A stretch of 11,688 nt of DNA from a virus (taxonomy: Duplodnaviria > Heunggongvirae > Uroviricota > Caudoviricetes): the IMG/VR virus record IMGVR_UViG_2571042053_000015. The stretch is one strand, 5' to 3'. Below the pieces are notes generated by a model. The model saw only the letters and a list, made by a program, of their open reading frames with translations. It was not told the DNA's origin and made no database searches. This document shows positions 1 to 11,688 of the stretch, piece after piece. Made by a program: the position numbers and the translations under genes. Positions within the stretch are counted from its first letter, which is position 1. The number at the start of each line of letters is the position of its first letter.

Positions 1-1260
1 ATGGCAAAGCTGACAGATATCCAAATCAAGTCATGGATTAAGGCAGGAGAGCGCTTCGAGGGGCGCTCTGACGGCAACGGGCTATACCTTCGCTATCGAG
101 CGGGGGATAAAGTGCCTGTATGGCGTTTTCGATATCAGTTCGCTGGGAAATCACGGGTAATGCTTATTGGATCTTATAGCGAAATATCCCTTTCCAAAGC
201 ACGGGAAATAGCCAAGGAATTATCCGCACGTGTAGCCCTAGGCTTCGATGTCGCCGGGGAAAAGAAAGCGCGAAAAGCGGCTGCTATAGAAAAGATGGAG
301 CGGGAGAAAAACGCGCTTCGCGTGTCAGAGCTAGCAACCGAGTATTTCGAACGGCAGATTTTGGGACGCTGGAAACATCCCGATCTTCTGCGCCGGAGAA
401 TCGATAAGGATATCAACCCACATATTGGCAACATGAAGATAGAGGACGTAAAACCCCGTCATATTGATGCGATGCTACAGAGCGTTGTTGATCGTGGCGC
501 TCCAACCGTAGCTAATGACGTTCTGCGCTGGACTAAACGCATATTCGATTATGCTATCAAGCGTCATGCACTGGAATTAAACCCAGCTGGAGCATTTGAT
601 CTGTCAGACGCTGGCGGGCAGGAAAGTAGCCGTATGCGCTGGCTGACCCGTGAAGAACTTATACGTTTTTTCCAAGCTATGCGCACTGCAAAAGGATTCA
701 GCCGCGAGAACGAGCTGACCATGAAGCTAATCCTCTGCCTGTGTTGTCGCAAAATGGAGCTGTGCGGTGCTCAGTGGGATGAATTCGACCTTGATGAAGC
801 AGTGTGGCATCTACCAGCAGAACGCGTTAAAAACGGCGACGCTATTGATATACCACTACCTCCACCTGCGGTTGGTTGGTTGAGAGAGCTTCGCACTATC
901 GCGGGCAGTGGGAGTAAATGGGTTCTCCCCGCGCGGAAGATGCAACACCGCATGATTCCCCACATTCAGGAAAGCACACTCCCCGTGGCGCTGGCAAAAG
1001 TACGCCGCGAAATGCCAGAAGTACCAAACTTCACAATTCACGATTTCAGACGTACCGCCCGCACCCATTTAGCGGCGTTGGGTGTCGATCCCGTAGTCGC
1101 AGAACGTTGCCTGAATCACCGCATTAAAGGCGTTGAGGGTATCTACAACCGCCACCAGTACTTTGAAGAACGACGGGCAGCCCTGGAACTGTGGGCGGGG
1201 CTTCTGGTTTCGCTTGAACGAGGGGAAAACTACAATGTTATTCCTTTATCTAAAATATAA
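1..1260 (+). CDS. int: Phage integrase, tyrosine recombinase, P4 / IntA-like
   Basis: Complete 419-aa ORF (ATG at 1, TAA at 1258-1260). N-terminal arm-binding-like region (GNGLYLRYRAGDKVPVWRFRYQFAGKSRVMLIGSY). C-terminal catalytic signatures of tyrosine recombinases (HDFRRTARTHL H-x-x-R box; GIYNRHQY nucleophile Tyr region). Family assignment is by recall of motifs, not database search. Confidence 0.9.
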   Translation: MAKLTDIQIKSWIKAGERFEGRSDGNGLYLRYRAGDKVPVWRFRYQFAGKSRVMLIGSYSEISLSKAREIAKELSARVALGFDVAGEKKARKAAAIEKMEREKNALRVSELATEYFERQILGRWKHPDLLRRRIDKDINPHIGNMKIEDVKPRHIDAMLQSVVDRGAPTVANDVLRWTKRIFDYAIKRHALELNPAGAFDLSDAGGQESSRMRWLTREELIRFFQAMRTAKGFSRENELTMKLILCLCCRKMELCGAQWDEFDLDEAVWHLPAERVKNGDAIDIPLPPPAVGWLRELRTIAGSGSKWVLPARKMQHRMIPHIQESTLPVALAKVRREMPEVPNFTIHDFRRTARTHLAALGVDPVVAERCLNHRIKGVEGIYNRHQYFEERRAALELWAGLLVSLERGENYNVIPLSKI

Positions 1261-2670: not shown

Positions 2671-3341
2671 TGGGCGCCATTCACCAGATATATGAGCAGG
2701 AAATGTTCTATAACTGGATAGGCGATGGTAAACGATGTGTAGCATTCCACGAAGCGGGCCATGCAGTAGCCGCATGGCTTATTCGCTTAGATATGCAGGT
2801 TATCGCCATTATGGATGAATCCGGCTACGTTGCTGGCGAACATGTACATGAAGCCCAGTGTTTGGGCGTTGTTAAACACGGCATAATCCACAACCACGAT
2901 CTCAGGCGTTTGCGGGAGAGTAAATCTGGTGTAGTTGGGCACGATGGCAAAGTTATCCCTTTCATACGCTACTACGCGGAAGGTATAAAACGCGATGCAA
3001 CAAAGGCCGCTTTTGTAGCCCTCGCTGGACCAGTAAGCGAAGCCCTTTACGAAAATAACGAAATTTTCAATAAAAAGTATTCACTCCCTCACCGCTATGA
3101 CATGGCTAACGTAAATGACATGCTCGATTTAATATGTGCCACGGATAAGCAAATTAACAGGAAGTTAATGCTTTCTAAACTTGTTGAAAAGACCAAATTC
3201 CTCATGACTCAATACTGGCCGGAAGTAGGAAAAATAGCGCATTTGCTTGAGCGGGATAACATTGTTAATGGGCGCGATGTTAGCTCGCTAATCGGCCTCA
3301 ACGTCATTGACCGGGCAACGCCATTTTTGCTGGCGGAATAA
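2670..3341 (+). CDS. Stand-alone zinc-metallopeptidase-domain protein, FtsH-like (peptidase M41-type HEAGH motif)
   Basis: 223-aa ORF. Residues 24-36 VAFHEAGHAVAAW carry an HExxH zinc-binding motif in the FtsH-like context (FtsH has AYHEAGHAI). No AAA+ ATPase or transmembrane region precedes it. Start codon overlaps the upstream stop. Confidence 0.75.
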   Translation: MGAIHQIYEQEMFYNWIGDGKRCVAFHEAGHAVAAWLIRLDMQVIAIMDESGYVAGEHVHEAQCLGVVKHGIIHNHDLRRLRESKSGVVGHDGKVIPFIRYYAEGIKRDATKAAFVALAGPVSEALYENNEIFNKKYSLPHRYDMANVNDMLDLICATDKQINRKLMLSKLVEKTKFLMTQYWPEVGKIAHLLERDNIVNGRDVSSLIGLNVIDRATPFLLAE

Positions 3342-3417: not shown

Positions 3418-4476
3418 ATGATGAATAATTTAATCAATCGCATTGCTTTAACCTTTCTAGCGTTAGTACTCACAGGCTGCACTGCGGGGAAAATCGATCC
3501 CGCAAAAGCGTTAACACAAATGCATATCGTCAAAAGTGATGACTATAAGAAGCGCCCCGGCTGGCCTGCGTTGGTTCGTCTGGGTACTGACGATTGTGAG
3601 ACATACAAAAGTGGCGGCGGTAGCCTCTTTAAGTGGGACGGGCTGACGTGCAACGACAAAAGCATTATCCTGGCGGTTAATAGCAAACCACAGACCATTC
3701 CAGTGTTCTACGCTGCTTACCATGAATACGGGAGCTATGGGGTCGGGGAACTATCCAATTTTGACAATAGCACCCGAACAGGTGAGGAAGCCTCGAAGAT
3801 TCTGGTTAACCTGACCACAGTATTGAACAATCCGGCAAAAGTTGACGCTATCTATGCTGACTATGAAAAGGATCGTTGGAGCATGGGACTTGGTACAGTC
3901 AACGAAAGCGATTTTAAAAAGAGCCTGGCTACTTTTGCTCAGGAACGGGATAAGCTTGCCTCTGAATACCATAAATTACGTGACGCAAACCAAAAGAGAT
4001 ACCTAGCTGAACGGGACGAACGAATCAAACGTGAGAAAGAAGAGGCCATGGCCTCTGAAAAAACGATTGATCTCGTGTTATGGCAGAATCCAACAGTTGA
4101 GCAACAGATGGTTGTTGACGCTCTGCACACTATTAAATTCACAATAAGAAACGATGGCGTGGCATACGCTAACGGTCGCCGATTTATGTCAATTGCCGGG
4201 ATGGAATATCTCAGGAATAGCCTAGCTCTGAGTATGGAGTCATGTTCAGACGCTGGGGCATATGTTGGTGATACGGCATTAAATCGCGCATGTATTCAGG
4301 GCTTGGCGAGGAACATTGTTGAGTGGGGGAAAACCGCCAACGACCGTTCTATTTCAGACAGAGCATGGAACGCAGCCGCAATGGATGGCAGCATTAACTA
4401 CAACCCAATCAAGTATGAAATCCTGTTTTCACATTGGGCAGGAATGGCCCGTGTCTACTCTGCTCGTAGATATTAA
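3418..4476 (+). CDS. Predicted lipoprotein (352 aa) with a central coiled-coil / charged segment; function unknown
   Basis: N-terminus MMNNLINRIALTFLALVLTGC has a hydrophobic signal peptide and lipobox L-T-G-C (Cys21). Charged, helix-prone segment ERDKLASEYHKLRDANQKRYLAERDERIKREKEEA. Gene is visibly AT-rich compared with int and primase. Followed by a terminator. Confidence 0.75.
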   Translation: MMNNLINRIALTFLALVLTGCTAGKIDPAKALTQMHIVKSDDYKKRPGWPALVRLGTDDCETYKSGGGSLFKWDGLTCNDKSIILAVNSKPQTIPVFYAAYHEYGSYGVGELSNFDNSTRTGEEASKILVNLTTVLNNPAKVDAIYADYEKDRWSMGLGTVNESDFKKSLATFAQERDKLASEYHKLRDANQKRYLAERDERIKREKEEAMASEKTIDLVLWQNPTVEQQMVVDALHTIKFTIRNDGVAYANGRRFMSIAGMEYLRNSLALSMESCSDAGAYVGDTALNRACIQGLARNIVEWGKTANDRSISDRAWNAAAMDGSINYNPIKYEILFSHWAGMARVYSARRY

Positions 4477-4618: not shown

Positions 4619-5731
4619 CTATTTAACTAAACGTAAATGTGACGGGCGTATCCCCGATTCCTGGGTACTCGATTTTCCACCATTGATAGCTTCCATAAAG
4701 AAGCTGTTACTGAAAGTAAGTGCACTCGCTTCGTCCGCTGGTAACCTCAACTGCTCGAGAATATCTCCCCTTTTAACGCCTTTGCTGCGTAGGGCTGAAA
4801 ACACTTTATCCAGCACTAATGACTTTTCACGTTCAGCAATCCCTTGAGGCTCACTCGTACGATATCCACGGCGAGCAAGTTCTATCGATAGCTGTCGATA
4901 ATGCCATTCGGTAGATAAACCGACATCAAACGTACGGCGCACCAAAGCCGCCAATGATACCCGCCAGTTCTTTTTTAACGAGATGAGTAGATCAAGCGAT
5001 GGCATTCTTGGCACTAAAGCTAAAATACTACGCTCAGGCATCAAAAAGGCCGATGCGAATCGATCTGCATCCTGCTCAGCTTGGCGGCCGTTGTTAGTTG
5101 AATGTTTATGGAGAACCAAGTGCCCCAGTTCATGAGCTGCATCGAATCGACTACGCTCCGGCGTTTTCATTGTATTCAAAAGCACAAAAGGTTTTTCATC
5201 CATCCAGAACGAAAAGGCGTCTACTTCAATACAATTTTCCGCGAGAGAGAACACACGGACCCCATTAGCTTCAAGAAGATGGACCATGTTAGAGATGGAT
5301 AATTCACCTATCCCCCAACTTTCTCTAACCACGCGAGCAGCTCGCTCAGGCTCAGAATAACCATCGAAACTACAATCAGGTACATTAGGTTTAGGAAGCT
5401 TAAACTGCCCGTCAATCCAAGCTGATAGCTCTTGCGCGAGCTTTCCGGCTCCGAGTGCTGAGTCCCTTTTCTGTGCCGTCAACTTTGTCATTGCACGGAA
5501 ACTAACGGCTTCTGGCGACAGAGTAGGTACATCCCTGTCGAGGAAGAACTCAATCGGATAGCCCAGAACAGCAGAAATCCGTTCCATGGTATCGCTGGCT
5601 ATGGCATCAAAAATCCCTGCTTTCTCGTAATTCGAAATCGTCTTACTAGTCAATTCTGTAGCTTCAGCTAAAGCTCTTTGTGTCAGGCCTCTCCGTTCTC
5701 TGGCTATACGTAAACGCTCTGAATTAAACAT
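4619..5731 (-). CDS. Fused XRE-family HTH / ImmA-IrrE (M78-like) zinc-metallopeptidase protein
   Basis: 370-aa ORF. N-terminal HTH (RLRIARERRGLTQRALAEATELTSKTISNYEKA, typical XRE / Cro-C1 helix-turn-helix). Central HExxH in the ImmA/IrrE context (RFDAAHELGHLVLHKH). Second gene of a two-gene - strand operon, 9 nt after the upstream stop. Confidence 0.85.
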   Translation of the reverse strand: MFNSERLRIARERRGLTQRALAEATELTSKTISNYEKAGIFDAIASDTMERISAVLGYPIEFFLDRDVPTLSPEAVSFRAMTKLTAQKRDSALGAGKLAQELSAWIDGQFKLPKPNVPDCSFDGYSEPERAARVVRESWGIGELSISNMVHLLEANGVRVFSLAENCIEVDAFSFWMDEKPFVLLNTMKTPERSRFDAAHELGHLVLHKHSTNNGRQAEQDADRFASAFLMPERSILALVPRMPSLDLLISLKKNWRVSLAALVRRTFDVGLSTEWHYRQLSIELARRGYRTSEPQGIAEREKSLVLDKVFSALRSKGVKRGDILEQLRLPADEASALTFSNSFFMEAINGGKSSTQESGIRPSHLRLVK

Positions 5732-5740
5732 GGTGCATAT

Positions 5741-6460
5741 TTAGCCTGTTTTTAAAATGTCGAGATCGATATCCGGTGTAAACTGCGGTACATCACCGTT
5801 CTGAACAATAGGGTCAGGTTGATGAGGAGCAATAATTAAACGTGTGGAGAAGGCATTAACTACATTCTTGTTATTGTATGAAATCGGGCGTGAAAGCTCA
5901 GCTCGGATCCCCACGCGCTCATCCCCGTCAATTTCATAAAAATCGTAAAGTAAAAACCATAAGTCCAGTCCGATTTTATTCGGTAGCAGTGGTATAACAT
6001 CACCTTCCGGCATGTCTAAATCCAGCTTAAGCTGGCTATCATCCAGGATAAGCTCACCCTGACCCGGGGTGTTATTATGGATTAACCCCATCAGCTCACA
6101 AGTAAAATCACCTTTCTTCATGCGAGACTCAGGAAATCCATGAACCAAACCTGTCTGATCACACCCCCGGCAGAGGTAAAGGGCAACTTTATCACTTACA
6201 GTCAGTTCAACATTTCGCAGGGACAGACGTTTGTAGCCTTTCGGAGCCAGAATGTCGCGGGCTGCACTCACCCCCTCACCATAGAAATATTGCCCACGTG
6301 AGGTCTTGGGGTGATTCTGAGTCGTCGAATAACGACCAGACAAGCCACGCTCAAGAATACGCCTGAGATCACTTTGGCTCAGATTCAGGGACTGCAGGTA
6401 GGATTCAACATCGTCAGGATCTGCCAAAACAATGGTTTTTGCGAGATTATGAGAGTACAT
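5741..6460 (-). CDS. Hypothetical protein (239 aa), first gene of the - strand two-gene operon; candidate effector / toxin partner
   Basis: ORF with a good Shine-Dalgarno (AAGAGG about 9 nt upstream of the ATG on the - strand). No motif recognised by eye. Immediately upstream of the HTH-peptidase gene. Confidence 0.7.
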   Translation of the reverse strand: MYSHNLAKTIVLADPDDVESYLQSLNLSQSDLRRILERGLSGRYSTTQNHPKTSRGQYFYGEGVSAARDILAPKGYKRLSLRNVELTVSDKVALYLCRGCDQTGLVHGFPESRMKKGDFTCELMGLIHNNTPGQGELILDDSQLKLDLDMPEGDVIPLLPNKIGLDLWFLLYDFYEIDGDERVGIRAELSRPISYNNKNVVNAFSTRLIIAPHQPDPIVQNGDVPQFTPDIDLDILKTG

Positions 6461-7494: not shown

Positions 7495-7590
7495 CCCCGG
7501 AACATTCCATATATTCCGACGCATTAGAATATTCCAGAGCCCATCACCATAACCTTGCGATTACCTTCTCACTCAATAGCAGGTAATCGC

Positions 7591-7803
7591 ATGAAATCGC
7601 AAACTTTCACCTTTCCCACCAATGGCAACGCACGAGCCAAACAAGTGGCGCACTATCTTGGAGTGCATATCAGCACCGTATGGCGCTATGCAAAACGTCC
7701 TGATTTTCCAAAACCCCACCAGTTAACCGACGGCGTGACCGTCTTTGACGCCGCAGCTATTCGCCAATGGAACAAGCAAAAAACCGGGGGTGAGAATGCT
7801 TAA
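7591..7803 (+). CDS. alpA: AlpA-family (P4 Vis-like) transcriptional regulator / excisionase-like protein
   Basis: 70-aa protein from the internal ATG at 7591 (AGGTAA Shine-Dalgarno just upstream). Sequence QVAHYLGVHISTVWRYAKRPDFPKPHQLTDGVTVFDAAAIRQW matches the AlpA / Vis winged-HTH pattern. Position between int and primase matches P4-like elements. Confidence 0.8.
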   Translation: MKSQTFTFPTNGNARAKQVAHYLGVHISTVWRYAKRPDFPKPHQLTDGVTVFDAAAIRQWNKQKTGGENA

Positions 7804-7857
7804 CGCGACCGTGAGCACACCCTGCACGACAGCCGTTCGATCTCCATTGTTGGCGGG

Positions 7858-8052
7858 TCAGGCTTTCGGCTCAATACCCAGCCGCTGGAGTTCTTTGCGC
7901 CCCAAGGTTTTCATCCAATTAGCTAAACTCATACCTGCATCTCGTGCGGCGGCCTCGAATTGCTCTTTCAATTCTGGGGCGATCCTCACTTGGAAAGCTG
8001 GTGCCTTTCCCCTGCCTTTGGGCTGTTTATCACGCTGTATTACTGTTGACAT
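7858..8052 (-). CDS. Ribbon-helix-helix (Arc / CopG-like) DNA-binding protein, candidate repressor of the replication operon
   Basis: 64-aa product from the internal ATG (MSTVIQRDK...). PAFQVRIAPELKEQFEAAARDAGMSLANWMKTLGRKEL shows the beta-strand / helix / helix pattern of RHH proteins. Divergent from the operon starting at 8187. The longer 8103 start would place the operator-like palindromes inside the coding region. Confidence 0.6.
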   Translation of the reverse strand: MSTVIQRDKQPKGRGKAPAFQVRIAPELKEQFEAAARDAGMSLANWMKTLGRKELQRLGIEPKA

Positions 8053-8108
8053 GTATGTACCTATTAAACTAAGATTCAAATCAATAGGTACGCACCTTAA
8101 CATGTTAA
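8045..8108. promoter_or_regulatory. Divergent control region with operator-like inverted repeats
   Basis: Consensus-like TTGACA at 8045-8050. Perfect 9-bp inverted repeat GTACCTATT (8057-8065) / AATAGGTAC (8083-8091) with a 17-bp spacer. Perfect 12-bp palindrome TTAACATGTTAA (8097-8108). Confidence 0.35.
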
Positions 8109-8122
8109 GGTCAGAAAAGACA

Positions 8123-8156
8123 ACGCCCCGTATGTGTTGCGAGCACTACGGGGCGT
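8123..8156. other. GC-rich hairpin (10-bp perfect stem ACGCCCCGTA / TACGGGGCGT, 14-nt loop) in the leader of the small-gene / primase operon
   Basis: Verified inverted repeat. On the - strand it is followed by TGTCTTTTCTG (terminator-like); on the + strand it sits about 30 nt upstream of the 8187 start. Could be an attenuator, terminator or RNA element. Confidence 0.4.
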
Positions 8157-8186
8157 CTAACCAACAACGTTACGGAGACTAACGCT

Positions 8187-8387
8187 ATGGCTAAGCCGCA
8201 GTGTACCCAAACTCACCCCAAATATCAGTATCGTTTTATGGCGCTCGATCGCGCTGACCGCCAGGCAAAACCCTGCAAAATCATTGTTGAGGCCACCAGC
8301 GAGCACGAAGCGCGTAAAGTGCTGGCTCCTCACTACATCCTGTCACTGTCCGCCGTTTTGCCAGTTCAGGAGGTGAGCCATGTTTAA
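8187..8387 (+). CDS. Small hypothetical protein (66 aa) of the P4-like replication / regulatory module
   Basis: ATG with GGAG 9 nt upstream. First of five tightly coupled small ORFs preceding the primase. Resemblance to small Icd-like / Ash-like proteins of P4-family prophages is only a vague recollection, not verified. Confidence 0.55.
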   Translation: MAKPQCTQTHPKYQYRFMALDRADRQAKPCKIIVEATSEHEARKVLAPHYILSLSAVLPVQEVSHV

Positions 8388-8574
8388 CGTCATTGTCACG
8401 GTCATCTATCACTTTTCGGGAACGATCCGTCGTTTTGCTATTCCGGAACGTTTCAATAATCGTGAGCTCGCAGAGAAAGCAGCGCAGCAGTTAACCCATA
8501 CCAGCTATCTGGATGATGGAGTGAGCAGAATTGTGACCCACGCGGCGGAAGTAGTGGAGGTGCGCCATGTATGA
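8380..8574 (+). CDS. Small hypothetical protein (64 aa)
   Basis: Strong Shine-Dalgarno AGGAGG 6 nt upstream of the ATG. 8-nt overlap with the upstream gene (ATGTTTAA). Confidence 0.55.
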   Translation: MFNVIVTVIYHFSGTIRRFAIPERFNNRELAEKAAQQLTHTSYLDDGVSRIVTHAAEVVEVRHV

Positions 8575-8755
8575 CGCCTACCTGAACCCAAAGGACGCAC
8601 TCCGTCCGATCGCCGTTGCACTCGAGGCTGCGCAGTTTATCGCGCTTGACCCGGAGAATACCGATTTAGCCCATGAGCTGATCGCCTGGGCACTTGAAAC
8701 AGCCGCGCGTGCCTCAGCTGCGCAACGTAACACCCCGGAGGGTAAAAATGCTTAA
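8567..8755 (+). CDS. Small hypothetical protein (62 aa)
   Basis: GGAGG 6 nt upstream of the ATG. 8-nt overlap with the upstream gene (ATGTATGA). Confidence 0.5.
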   Translation: MYDAYLNPKDALRPIAVALEAAQFIALDPENTDLAHELIAWALETAARASAAQRNTPEGKNA

Positions 8756-9056
8756 TCTCAATACATGGAATCTTTTCACGCTGCCGCTGAACGGTGGCGC
8801 AGCTGAGACAGCGCCGGACGATCTGCGTCTGCTGGCCGCTGTGGGGGACGAGGCTCGCAACGACTACCTGCGCGGTGTAAGCGCCATCGGCAATCTGATC
8901 TTCTGGGCATGTGATAACCCCAACTACACCGACCATAAAGCTGACCTGCCAGCGCTGGGCGCATTCCTGAAACATACCGCTGATATGGCGCGCGCTGCCG
9001 AATTCATGGCGGGACATCTGGACTCACTGGCTGACGGCAAAGAGGGAGGCAAATAA
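8748..9056 (+). CDS. Hypothetical protein (102 aa), internal start of the 8694-9056 ORF
   Basis: ATG at 8748 preceded by GGAGGG at about 6-nt spacing; 8-nt overlap with the upstream gene (ATGCTTAA). The 8694 start has no Shine-Dalgarno and lies inside the upstream gene. Confidence 0.55.
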   Translation: MLNLNTWNLFTLPLNGGAAETAPDDLRLLAAVGDEARNDYLRGVSAIGNLIFWACDNPNYTDHKADLPALGAFLKHTADMARAAEFMAGHLDSLADGKEGGK

Positions 9057-9277
9057 TGCCACGCAAACATCGCTCATCAAGCAACCTGATCAAATTAATG
9101 GAACGCCAGAAAGGTATAGGGCGCGACGATATCCAGATCGCAGATAATCGCCCTACATTCATGCCGTACGAGCCGAACGGAACCTACGCCACAAACCGCC
9201 ATACCCGCCGTATGCTACGCAAGCTCCACGGCATCCAGGCAAAAAGAATGTGTGATCTGAAAGGAGGTCAGAAATGA
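9056..9277 (+). CDS. Small basic hypothetical protein (73 aa)
   Basis: GAGGGAGG Shine-Dalgarno upstream. Start overlaps the upstream stop (TAATG) and its stop overlaps the primase start (ATGA). Arg/Lys-rich. Confidence 0.55.
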   Translation: MPRKHRSSSNLIKLMERQKGIGRDDIQIADNRPTFMPYEPNGTYATNRHTRRMLRKLHGIQAKRMCDLKGGQK

Positions 9278-11688
9278 TTGGATTCGATCACCTGATGGAG
9301 CAGGGGCAGAAACGCACCCCTGCTCGTTTTACTGCAAATAGCTTTTCTGACCTGTGCAACGCTATTCTATCGCATCGTGTGCAAATTTCCATCACCCCAG
9401 AAATGACAGATGAAGAGCGACGTAAGGAAAAGCAGAAACTGTACTGGTTCTCGGCAACTACCCAGCAGGACGGGCAGCGACGTAAACCCGAAAACATGGC
9501 ACCGTGTGCTTTCGGTATGCTGGACATTGACGGCAGCACTCCCGGTGCAATCACAGCACTTGTACAGGTGTTCCGGCGATACTCAATGCTGGTGTACCAG
9601 ACGGCCAGCTATACGGCGGATGAACCTCGTCTGCGTATTGTGTGCGAGCTTTCCCGAGCGGTTGAATCTGACTACCGCCGAGCGACAGGCGAATCCATAG
9701 AAACTTTGTTGATGCAGGAGGCTGGATTCTCATTCGCCAGCCTGGCGGATAAGAAAGCACGCTGGGAGAACGGCAGCGATTATGTTGTCTTTGACCGCAA
9801 TGTATACGGCGCTCAAAGCTATTGCTACTGTCCACACTCTGGAGCGAAAGCCCAGAATTACGCGGGCGCGGTAATCGACGTAGGGGCGTTACCGGAACCC
9901 GCCCAGCTACCAGCGAAGGCGGCCAAAAGCAAGGCAAAGAAACAGCGCCAGCGTGACGCCGCGGCGGTAATAGATGCTGATTTTGACGATCTGAGCGCCG
10001 GACCGGATAACTTCCTTATCGCCGACCTGCGCAGCGCACTCTGGTTTCCCTCCATGCTGCAAAAGGCATGGGACAATGGGGCGTGGATTGAGCAGGGCTA
10101 CCGCCTTGCATCTCTCAAAGGCACCGATTTTGAGGACGACGCGCGGCAGCTGTGGGTCGAGTGGTCATTGACCGCGGCGGATGGCTGGCCTGATGAAGAA
10201 CTTGATGAAGTCGCAGCACAACGCTGGGATGGTCTCGCCCCTGACAAAACCAGCTATAAAGCTATTTTTACTGATGCTCAGGCGCAGGGGTGGAATAATC
10301 CGAGCACATGGCGAGCAAAGGCCGCGTACATTGAGAAAATGGCCCCCAGCACACGCGGTGAACTGCTAGCGCAATATTACGGCAACGTATGCCTGAAAGC
10401 TGATGGTAACATGGTTTATCACTATACCGGGCAGGGGTGGGAGCACATCGCCGATGCCGAGTTGCGCCGCCAGCTTTCGCATATTTTCAAAGATAACGGG
10501 GTCCCCTTTACACCGTACGAGGTTAAAAGCGCGATTGAGGCTATGGGAATGCTTCTGCCTTTAATGGGAGAAACTCCTCGTAACCTGATTGGCTTTGCCA
10601 ACGGCGTTTATGATCTCGAGGCGCAGCGATTCCGCCCCCACTGCCCAGACGATTGGCTGACCAGCCATAACGGCGTTGAATACACGCAACCGGTTAAAGG
10701 CGAAACCCTGAAAAACAATGCCCCAAACTTCTGGCGCTGGCTGCATCATTCCGCAGGGGGCGACTTCGACAAAATGGAGAGAATCAAAGCCGCTCTGTAT
10801 ATGGTGCTGGCAAACCGCTACGACTGGCAACTGTTCATCGAGGTTACCGGTGCTGGTGGCAGTGGTAAAAGCGTGTTCACGGGTATTGCACGTATGCTGA
10901 CGGGCGAACTACACGCCACCAGCGGCACAATGGAGGACATGGACACCGCGCGCGAACGCGCATCTTTTGTCGGCAAAAGCCTGATCACCCTACCCGACCA
11001 AGCAACATATACGGGTTCCGGGCCGGGTATCAAGGCTATAACGGGCGGCGACGTGGTAAGGATCGACCCAAAGCACGAAAAGCCATTCCATACGGTTATT
11101 CGCGCCGTTGTCATCGCAACAAACAACGAACCTATGCGTTTCACCGAACGACAAGGCGGGATATCGCGGCGCCGGGTTATTTTCCCGTTTAACCATGAAG
11201 TGCCGGAGGCGGAACGTGATCCCCATCTGCTCGATAAAATTAAAGCCGAACTGCCGGTAATCGTCCGTGGTCTGCTGATTGACTTCGAACAGCCAGGCAA
11301 AGCCAAATCGCTACTTATCGCGCAGCGTGATTCAGCGGAAGCGCTGCAGGTGAAGAACGATAACGACCCGATGTATGGCTTTTGCTCTTACCTGCTAGGT
11401 TTGCCGAATCCCGAGGGCATGTACATGGGCGATGGGCGCATGGCGCGAGAGCCACGCATCTACCTCTATCATGCTTATCTGGCCTATCTGGAAGCCTACG
11501 GTTATCAGAGAACCCCCACCCTGCCAAAGTTCAGCGGAGATTTACGGGACACGCTCAAAGCCTTTGGTATTACTCTGGACAGTAAAAAGAGTAAAAAGGG
11601 CAAAAGATATAACGTCAATTTGTCTGACAGGGCACAAGAATGGCTGGGAGAAGACGAACTCTCAGCTGTGCCCGACACATTGCAGTAA
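9274..11688 (+). CDS. P4-alpha-like DNA primase / helicase (phage-plasmid primase, P4 family, P-loop NTPase C-terminal region)
   Basis: 804-aa ORF with a strong Shine-Dalgarno (AGGAGG) and TAA at 11686-11688. Walker A P-loop VTGAGGSGKSVF (about nt 10846-10880). Size and position after alpA and the small genes fit the primase-helicase of P4-like satellites / PICIs. Recalled from family knowledge, not searched. Confidence 0.85.
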   Translation: MIGFDHLMEQGQKRTPARFTANSFSDLCNAILSHRVQISITPEMTDEERRKEKQKLYWFSATTQQDGQRRKPENMAPCAFGMLDIDGSTPGAITALVQVFRRYSMLVYQTASYTADEPRLRIVCELSRAVESDYRRATGESIETLLMQEAGFSFASLADKKARWENGSDYVVFDRNVYGAQSYCYCPHSGAKAQNYAGAVIDVGALPEPAQLPAKAAKSKAKKQRQRDAAAVIDADFDDLSAGPDNFLIADLRSALWFPSMLQKAWDNGAWIEQGYRLASLKGTDFEDDARQLWVEWSLTAADGWPDEELDEVAAQRWDGLAPDKTSYKAIFTDAQAQGWNNPSTWRAKAAYIEKMAPSTRGELLAQYYGNVCLKADGNMVYHYTGQGWEHIADAELRRQLSHIFKDNGVPFTPYEVKSAIEAMGMLLPLMGETPRNLIGFANGVYDLEAQRFRPHCPDDWLTSHNGVEYTQPVKGETLKNNAPNFWRWLHHSAGGDFDKMERIKAALYMVLANRYDWQLFIEVTGAGGSGKSVFTGIARMLTGELHATSGTMEDMDTARERASFVGKSLITLPDQATYTGSGPGIKAITGGDVVRIDPKHEKPFHTVIRAVVIATNNEPMRFTERQGGISRRRVIFPFNHEVPEAERDPHLLDKIKAELPVIVRGLLIDFEQPGKAKSLLIAQRDSAEALQVKNDNDPMYGFCSYLLGLPNPEGMYMGDGRMAREPRIYLYHAYLAYLEAYGYQRTPTLPKFSGDLRDTLKAFGITLDSKKSKKGKRYNVNLSDRAQEWLGEDELSAVPDTLQ

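Follow-up and report, generated by a model that had tools for sequence, protein, structure and literature searches.

In the immI region of phage P22, small ribbon-helix-helix (RHH) repressors act on operators that overlap divergent promoters, and an antisense RNA lies over a ribosome-binding site. In P1 and P4, a small RNA acts on the leader or the ribosome-binding site of an icd-like open reading frame (ORF) and so controls the downstream genes. A comparable double control of a replication gene, by a small repressor and a countertranscript over the ribosome-binding site, is found in plasmid pMV158 with the RHH protein CopG and RNAII and with the countertranscript of the IncQ plasmids. In Escherichia coli K-12, the -10 box that drives the antisense RNA SymR was demonstrated by mutation, repression of translation was shown experimentally, and symE is in addition regulated by LexA (PMC1891008). 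RHH genes close to some SymE genes were read as antitoxin-like, and the RNA-regulated set was treated as being without transcription factors (Kawano et al., 2007). Here, we analyzed a stretch of 11,688 nucleotides (called the window for simplicity; IMG/VR record IMGVR_UViG_2571042053_000015, Caudoviricetes) in which a minus-strand gene encoding a small RHH protein is located between an AlpA/Vis-like gene and a plus-strand operon that runs from an Icd-like gene to a primase. We consider it probable that positions 7858-8205 constitute a compact, portable control cassette with two layers, through which a small integrative island of the satellite type controls its operon from the Icd-like gene to the primase, with the RHH protein as putative repressor of transcription and a predicted SymR-like antisense RNA as second layer. 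The cassette was compared across 79 related loci, one genome per species, containing about 65 distinct intergenic sequences.

The RHH protein and two putative operators at the divergent promoter

A previous reading made from the letters alone (the sequence-only reading) had described an Arc-like RHH protein encoded divergently from a small-gene/primase operon; the ORF layout agrees with this description, and profile searches and a structural model indicate that the product of the gene is indeed an Arc-like RHH protein. The family profile A3 matched P22 Arc in the PDB (1b28/1myl) over residues 12-59 with E = 4e-4, thereby placing PaFqiRi opposite the Arc segment PQFNLRW, and PHROG 228 ('Arc-like repressor') was matched with E = 1.2e-5. 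The AF2 model (pLDDT 78) contains an extended segment at residues 19-24 followed by helices at 26-39 and 43-57. All top Foldseek matches were RHH proteins, namely Arc (TM-score 0.85, root-mean-square deviation 1.1), AtaR, AmrZ, NikA, PutA and CopG, with E-values that are weak because the domain is tiny. The beta-strand reads AFQVRI, and residues A19, Q21 and R23 are predicted to face the DNA. The full open frame spans 7858-8103 (81 aa, minus strand) and offers start codons at 8103 and 8052, the latter of which had been favored earlier and is also the predicted start here. The 51 homologues, which stem from Enterobacterales and Aeromonas, are nearly all 63-64 aa long and begin with MST, and three longer database forms have unrelated extensions at the N-terminus. 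PGAP likewise places the start at 8052, and the sequence contains AGGT 6 nt 5' of this ATG and no comparable element in front of the ATG at 8103.

The divergent promoter of the operon, P_R (Table 1), matches the consensus at 10 of 12 positions and is the sole promoter-like site in 7500-8700. Its -10 box is bracketed by two putative operators, O1 and O2, which have the form AGGT-N4-ACCT, occupy fixed positions across the related loci and are separated by 35 bp from center to center. O1 covers the start codon of the repressor itself together with its AGGT Shine-Dalgarno sequence. Within the single window these counts are at chance level (one promoter found versus 1.2 expected in shuffled sequence, four matches to AGGTN4ACCT versus 2.7 expected, neither being significant alone), and significance must therefore come from the comparison of related loci. 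In this comparison, the TTGACA element that the sequence-only reading had picked out was kept in about 60 of the 65 distinct loci, with the third base of the Ser codon TCA also conserved although it is synonymous, and positions T20, A21 and T25 of the -10 box (counted relative to the start codon) were the sole conserved peaks in an otherwise variable spacer. The perfect 9-bp inverted repeat reported before (8057-8065 and 8083-8091, 17 bp between the arms) is present as well; its arms are parts of O1 and O2, so that the repeat is better described as a portion of two 12-bp operators.

In 37 of 65 loci, O1 and O2 have the same 8-bp core, and in 45 of 65 the two cores differ by at most one mismatch, as compared to 0.04% identical cores between classes. 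The core bases of both operators track the residue triplet that is aligned to the DNA-contact residues Q9/N11/R13 of Arc, and seven classes are distinguished among the approximately 65 loci: TQR with the core GTACGTAC, AQR (the class of the window) with the cores GTACACAC / GTATGTAC, PHR with GTGTACAC, QKR with GTGGCCAC, QRR with GTGGTCAC, MNR with GTATAGAC and PQR with GTAATTAC. Since linked sequences are inherited together, the association of residues and cores proves little by itself. The fact that O1 and O2 change together while the DNA between them drifts fits selection for recognition by one protein, and we infer that O1 and O2 are the binding sites of the RHH protein. In two loci (L026 and L039), the segment between O1 and O2 is deleted, leaving one hybrid operator and no -10 box, as expected from recombination between operator copies.

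A natural replacement of this unit was found in E. coli AUSMDU00014361 (NZ_CP045827), in which window positions 7881-8123 are exchanged for unrelated sequence between flanks that are about 100% identical. The replacement encodes a YlcI/YnfO-type RHH protein with the same strand-helix-helix pattern and has a repeat of its own, TGGTAACTACCA, which occurs twice at a TTGCAT-16-TATAAT promoter, once in the spacer and once immediately 3' of the start. On the right, the breakpoint is located at the foot of the GC hairpin described below, and on the left it falls inside the GIEPK(A/G/T) tail of the repressor. The position of the right breakpoint implies that repressor and operators move as a unit to which the hairpin does not belong. 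Thus, the repressor-plus-operator cassette appears to have been exchanged as a unit between E. coli islands, as immunity modules behave. The C-terminal tail GIEPK(A/G/T) (window 7858-7880; 3306-3328 in locus L002) is kept across the specificity classes and also in the YlcI/YnfO-type replacement.

A predicted SymR-like antisense RNA over the operon leader

On the strand opposite to the operon leader, we predict an RNA of about 80 nt which is fully complementary to the 5' leader, the Shine-Dalgarno sequence and the AUG of the Icd-like gene. It consists of a 5' stem-loop with the anti-Shine-Dalgarno CUCC in its loop (the complement of 8168-8184), a GGUUAG linker, a 3' hairpin (8156-8123) and a U-rich tail (8122-8112), the latter corresponding to the T-rich stretch TGTCTTTTCTG that follows the GC hairpin on the minus strand. 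The predicted fold of the segment 8192-8112 (-35.1 kcal/mol, z = -5.3) comprises two stem-loops, CUCC being located in a loop of 7 nt.

The covariance model R1 was made from 45 loci in antisense orientation, and covariation was evaluated after realignment to this model. Given a plain MAFFT alignment, RNAalifold retrieved the anti-Shine-Dalgarno hairpin, with the outer stem of the 3' hairpin misaligned; the realignment to R1 corrected this. Matches to R1 were found beside the RHH gene at 79 places in 78 genome loci (in the window at 8111-8194 on the minus strand with 53.7 bits) as well as in 72 of 80 independent IMG/VR loci. In the R1 alignment, 91% of the cells are paired versus at most 47% in slid controls and double changes are seen in 17 of the 19 pairs, figures whose significance is overstated by the shuffle controls because related sequences were used and their alignment had been fitted to R1. 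In the hairpin that contains the anti-Shine-Dalgarno sequence (the Shine-Dalgarno sequence in the sense leader), all five pairs exhibit double changes, four of them in 24-31 sequences. G.U pairs and A.C cells number 166 and 16, respectively, which indicates that the structure is selected on the antisense strand. All 62 distinct sequences have the same T, A and T in the antisense -10 box, third codon positions included and ahead of five or more unrelated first genes, and 60 of the 62 keep a G two bases upstream. The leader and the first approximately seven codons are conserved ahead of at least five unrelated first genes, i.e. the gene for the SymE toxin (23 genome loci, with a true SymE gene behind the same cassette), an unknown 176-aa family (16 loci), the Icd-like gene (11 loci, window included) and short ORFs of 32 aa and 38 aa (7 loci each).

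When R1 was run over a 10-kb locus of K-12 with filters switched off, the best match was the annotated symR over its full length (17.8 bits, E = 6.5e-4), which is specific but weak, and the predicted RNA appears to be related to SymR. When the whole window was scanned with Rfam, none of the known RNA families reached its gathering score at the hairpin. With permissive settings, the segment 8040-8260 gave only a weak R1162 match and chance microRNA matches.

An alternative is that the hairpins act in the sense mRNA leader, be it in 5' stability, in processing or as a target of a protein or of Rho, and that no functional antisense RNA is made. The leader folds too, with z = -2.65 and the Shine-Dalgarno sequence in the loop, the R1162 model of Rfam gives weak matches on the sense strand (18.8-31.7 bits), and a few clades are devoid of a U-tail on the antisense strand. 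We nevertheless regard a leader function of this kind as unlikely, because the tenfold excess of G.U pairs is seen on the antisense strand, the antisense fold is far more exceptional than that of the leader, the invariant antisense TAnnnT coincides with the position of the validated symR -10 box even at third codon positions, and most loci carry a T-rich tail 3' of the hairpin on the antisense strand.

The same data bear on the suggestion that each of the four symmetric elements of the region (9-bp repeat, palindrome, TTGACA region and GC hairpin) serves as an RHH operator and that together they form a protein-only immunity or lysogeny switch without an RNA. All four elements exist and lie close together within about 110 bp. 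The palindrome had been described as 12 bp long and is perfect over 18 bp (chance of about 130 x 4^-9 = 5e-4 within roughly 130 bp, an arithmetic estimate); it ends in ACCT and AGGT, tetramers that are also found on either side of the operator cores, and at the corresponding place other loci have shorter inverted repeats of the type ACC(C/T)T...A(G/A)GGT. The full palindrome is, however, missing from most loci. Apart from the window, only the closest relative (L003) has it, the left half being family-wide, and the palindrome is lineage-specific. The GC hairpin with its 10-bp stem is present as reported, but its stem varies by compensatory changes independently of the repressor specificity class, it is unchanged by the cassette swap, its G.U pairs occur on one strand only, and it lies within the symR-homologous element. 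In most loci it is followed by a T-rich tail on the antisense strand; these tails were read by eye since minimum-energy folds paired them and an automated count was unreliable. Taken together, the hairpin is best interpreted as the terminator-type 3' stem-loop of the predicted antisense RNA and not as an operator, an all-operator region is improbable, and of the dense array proposed in the sequence-only reading only the 9-bp repeat falls within conserved operators.

Two further observations concern the RNA gene. The loop of the hairpin in the window (8133-8146, TGTGTTGCGAGCAC) and that of the closest relatives, L003 and L014 (GTGCTCGCAACACA), are exact reverse complements of each other, and the heptamer CTCGCAA/TTGCGAG is found again in both orientations in other specificity classes. 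Locus L050 contains two full cassettes 2 kb apart (RNA at 1938-2020 with the RHH gene at 2072, and RNA at 3857-3942 with the RHH gene at 4001).

Table 1. Features of the cassette and of its immediate neighbors, in window coordinates.
Feature	Position	Strand	Description
AlpA/Vis-like gene	7591-7803	+	Pfam Phage_AlpA, PGAP and P4 synteny; convergent with the RHH gene; left edge of the slot matching the P4 immunity region
Arc-like RHH repressor gene (predicted)	7858-8052	-	64 aa (MSTVIQRDKQPKGRGKAPAFQVRIAPELKEQ...); ORF, PGAP start, homologues, Arc profile match, AF2 model
P_R -35 box TTGACA (predicted)	8046-8051	+	reverse complement of the Met-Ser-Thr codons of the repressor
Operator O1 (predicted)	8051-8062		ATGTATGTACCT, 12 bp; 8-bp core GTATGTAC at 8053-8060; in the P_R spacer
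P_R -10 box TAAGAT (predicted)	8070-8075	+	18 bp after the -35 box; predicted transcription start near 8082
Operator O2 (predicted)	8086-8097		AGGTACGCACCT, 12 bp; core GTACGCAC at 8088-8095; just 3' of the predicted P_R start
Palindrome	8094-8111		ACCTTAACATGTTAAGGT, 18 bp, perfect; shares the final 4 bp of O2; includes the ATG at 8103 that was rejected as start
SymR-like cis-antisense RNA (predicted)	8112-8192	-	about 80 nt, 3' end at about 8112-8116; covariance model, covariation, strand test, fold
GC hairpin	8123-8156	-	3' stem-loop of the predicted RNA; arms 8123-8132 / 8147-8156, perfect 10-bp stem, 14-nt loop
Sense-leader hairpin	8168-8184	+	CGTTA[CGGAGAC]TAACG; Shine-Dalgarno GGAG (8174-8177) in the loop, just before the ATG at 8187
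Icd-like gene	8187-8387	+	first of the coupled chain; NCBIfam phage_ICD_like, E = 5e-18; ATG at 8187
Antisense -10 box TACACT (predicted)	8200-8205	-	inside codons 5-7 of the Icd-like gene

Island setting and the P4 immunity slot

The window is a 100% match to a chromosomal island of E. coli 2011C-4251. Most of a 1.8-kb query around the cassette was found in 15 of 5,426 complete E. coli genomes, and enteropathogenic E. coli (EPEC) E2348/69 carries the island at 98.5% identity, in NC_011601.1 at approximately 4.0725 Mb as calculated by offset. The island is about 12 kb long, is flanked by yicC and dinD and ends after the primase, beside dinD. It comprises, in this order, a P4-type integrase, cargo, the AlpA/Vis-like gene, the minus-strand RHH gene, the Icd-like gene, four small ORFs and a P4-family primase (TIGR01613 at 109.9 bits with a cut-off of 108.7). 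The six plus-strand ORFs from 8187 to the primase (8187-8387, 8380-8574, 8567-8755, 8748-9056, 9056-9277 and 9274-11688) overlap by 1-8 nt and are therefore read as one translationally coupled operon. The Icd-like protein shares 44% identity with the C-terminal portion of the old 'cI ORF' of P4 and is a relative of cA of N15. The small ORFs 3' of the Icd-like gene gave no family match, and none of them was identifiable as Cro-like. The cargo between int and alpA (4619-6460, minus strand) is a Rosmer anti-phage defense pair composed of RmrA (helix-turn-helix plus M78 peptidase; 4619-5731, E = 1e-149) and RmrT (5741-6460, E = 1e-52). An int-alpA RNA motif (Rfam RF02996; 6575-6642, plus strand) scored 46.5 bits with a gathering score of 35.8 and is located upstream of a 275-aa ORF that precedes alpA.

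The order of genes resembles that of satellite P4. In P4, vis is followed by isrK/C4 (the CI immunity RNA), an icd-like ORF and epsilon, onward to alpha; in the window, alpA is followed by the cassette and the Icd-like gene, onward to the primase. C4, isrK and c4-a1b1 of Rfam were not found in the window at E <= 1, with P4 itself scoring 74.9 and 60.8 bits, and model R1 did not match P4. The shared order together with the missing C4/isrK suggests that the cassette fills the immunity slot of P4 with a different mechanism. Of the immunity or replication switch that the sequence-only reading had envisaged, the location in this slot and the exchange as a unit are in agreement with such a role; the term 'lysogeny switch' goes beyond the evidence, given that a Cro-like regulator was not identified.

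The island has the P4-like order of integrase, Vis/AlpA and alpha-type primase. A strict P4-like satellite was rejected as its class, the island being without sid, delta, psu and the CI RNA. In the IMG/VR loci bearing the RHH gene, sid/delta/psu were present in 3 of 80, with the RHH gene located elsewhere there. The layout is also that of Gram-negative phage-inducible chromosomal islands (PICIs), with int, alpA and a pri/rep module in the 10-15 kb class at a fixed chromosomal site, and recognizable packaging genes were not found in the window.

Finally, the RHH protein could be the antitoxin of a toxin-antitoxin pair (HicB-like or YlcI-type) or a relaxosome or partition accessory, with repeats that are autoregulatory or part of an oriT and a primase operon outside its control, as the homologue names 'HicB family antitoxin' and 'YlcI/YnfO', the weak matches to HicB, TraJ and MobA and the antitoxin-like reading of Kawano et al. 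would suggest; this is improbable, because all such matches stay below curated cut-offs, the gene is monocistronic and convergent with alpA, a toxin, relaxase or ParA partner is not among the annotated ORFs, every class has the two operators on either side of the -10 box of the divergent promoter, and the order int, vis/alpA, RHH, operon, alpha-like primase is kept in 58 of 80 IMG/VR loci with the repressor. Both database names rest on sub-threshold similarity. As identities of the protein, the HicB antitoxin (18.8 bits with a cut-off of 21, partner toxin not present) and the TraJ/MobA relaxosome proteins (scores far below the cut-offs, relaxase not present) were rejected.

Proposed mechanism and comparison with described systems

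In the transcription layer of the proposed two-layer cassette, which we deduce from the sequence and its comparison across loci, RHH dimers would bind O1 and O2. One site is placed in the P_R spacer and the other immediately behind the P_R start, so that bound repressor would exclude RNA polymerase, and because O1 lies over the ribosome-binding site and start codon of the repressor gene, the RHH protein probably limits its own synthesis. In the translation layer, proposed on the basis of homology to SymR of E. coli, the RNA of about 80 nt would arise from a leftward promoter that is constitutive, and antisense pairing of this RNA with the leader, the Shine-Dalgarno sequence and the AUG would block translation of the first gene. 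Owing to the overlaps of 1-8 nt between the six operon ORFs, this block should spread to the primase via lost translational coupling and polarity. Both locks would have to be opened for replication, with a helper-phage anti-repressor or proteolysis as candidate openers.

In addition to the overstated shuffle controls mentioned above, a number of observations weigh against this two-layer cassette. Regarding the operators, O1 and O2 of the window carry different bases at two central positions (L003 has two identical sites), and their spacing of 35 bp does not correspond to integral helical turns, which gives no obvious basis for cooperative binding. For the repressor gene itself, no sigma-70 promoter with a conserved position was found in a scan. 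Regarding the RNA, the Rfam symR model (RF01809) scored 30.2 bits on the antisense strand of the homologous site in L004 and did not reach its gathering score of 61, and symR was absent from the window scan of 8040-8260 at E <= 10. The U-tail of the window is interrupted (UUGUCUUUUCUG) and is wholly absent in the Pectobacterium/Brenneria clade, and a simple terminator scan did not call the hairpin because the loop exceeds the 8-nt limit of the tool.

A more far-reaching scheme, which we put forward tentatively and consider less likely than not, is a face-to-face switch of the P2/186 type. The RNA gene is always co-oriented with the RHH gene and ends about 58 nt upstream of it, which makes terminator read-through a live possibility; the antisense promoter might in this way also feed the RHH gene. 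The resulting leftward 'maintenance' transcript would converge with that from P_R over about 110 bp and oppose it by means of repressor, antisense pairing and transcriptional interference. The cassette might then be the master switch of a large unnamed int-alpA-RHH-primase satellite family, and K-12 symER a domesticated remnant in which LexA has replaced the RHH protein.

If the two-layer cassette is correct, the master repressors of many enterobacterial satellites and islands would be encoded by genes that are at present labeled 'hypothetical', 'HicB antitoxin' or 'YlcI/YnfO'. SymR would be one member of a portable antisense gate placed before at least five unrelated first genes, among them the Icd-like gene of a replication operon, which would suggest an origin for symER. 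The RNA-immunity slot of P4 could hold a protein-plus-antisense system in exchangeable specificity types, with a bearing on satellite-satellite and satellite-helper immunity. The seven natural pairings of residues and operator cores would provide a test set for the rules of RHH-DNA recognition and for orthogonal repressors. In the literature searched, whose coverage was incomplete, we found no description of a cassette composed of an RHH gene and a SymR-like RNA. Satellite surveys list Icd, HicB and YlcI/YnfO genes without a role, and a mobilome survey treats such RHH genes only as accessory or toxin-antitoxin genes (PMC13612085).

Among the described systems, symE/symR of K-12 shares a number of details with the cassette. 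Both have, in the cassette by prediction, a cis-antisense RNA of about 77-80 nt that starts at +6 of the target ORF, a -10 box that is the reverse complement of codons 5-7 (ATG+14..19 in the family), a 5' stem-loop opposite the Shine-Dalgarno sequence, a linker (GAUUAG in K-12 versus GGUUAG here) and a 3' GC hairpin. On the sense strand, K-12 has TAATCAC as linker where the cassette family has CTAACCA, and the loop of the K-12 hairpin is nearly identical to that of L004. Also common to both are the hairpin that presents the Shine-Dalgarno sequence and is followed by the ATG, and a site for a transcriptional repressor just upstream. They differ in the target, which is here the Icd-like gene heading a primase operon instead of SymE, and in the transcriptional repressor, i.e. 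a cassette-encoded RHH protein here and LexA in K-12. The symE promoter of K-12 (L082, 5916-5935) carries a LexA-type box, CTG-N10-CAG, at the place occupied by O2 and the palindrome in the cassette family, and K-12 symER resembles the same cassette with LexA control in place of the RHH repressor. A blastn search of a SymE-type cassette against the E. coli genomes gave no match. SymE-type copies in ten loci (L016, L022, L027, L028, L052, L056, L057, L063, L066 and L070) are located about 0.5-3 kb from tRNA-Sec (selC), a classic site of island integration, and most of them look like short remnants without a primase.

The IncQ R1162/RSF1010 countertranscript (Rfam RF00043) gives weak matches at the homologous place and shares GCGyCUAACCAnCAAC...GGAG...AUGGCU. 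The matches (window 8121-8194, plus strand, 18.8 bits; L025 3856-3932, 31.7 bits; L057 3864-3937, 30.0 bits) differ from a true member in that they score 18.8-31.7 bits versus a gathering score of 55 and are on the sense strand. There are hints that SymR, R1162 and the cassette RNA could be families of one clan. In pMV158, CopG is co-transcribed with rep, whereas the RHH gene here is divergent from the operon.

The P4 CI RNA and the P1 immI region (C4, icd, ant) likewise have a region of small-RNA control in front of an icd-like ORF, and the slot in P4, from vis/alpA to the alpha-type primase, is identical. Their RNA is, however, cut from the sense leader, acts on repeated target sites and works without a protein repressor, whereas the RNA predicted here would be a true antisense transcript paired with an RHH repressor. 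P22 immI (Arc, Mnt and the sar antisense RNA) offers in Arc the closest solved relative of the RHH protein. It differs in gene content and type of element, and Arc occupies a single operator of 21 bp in the form of a dimer of dimers, in contrast to the two separate 12-bp sites of the cassette. The cassette thus appears to use a known control logic, that of a small repressor combined with a countertranscript, in a new build made of an Arc-like repressor and a SymR-like RNA, which is widespread in enterobacterial satellite-type islands.

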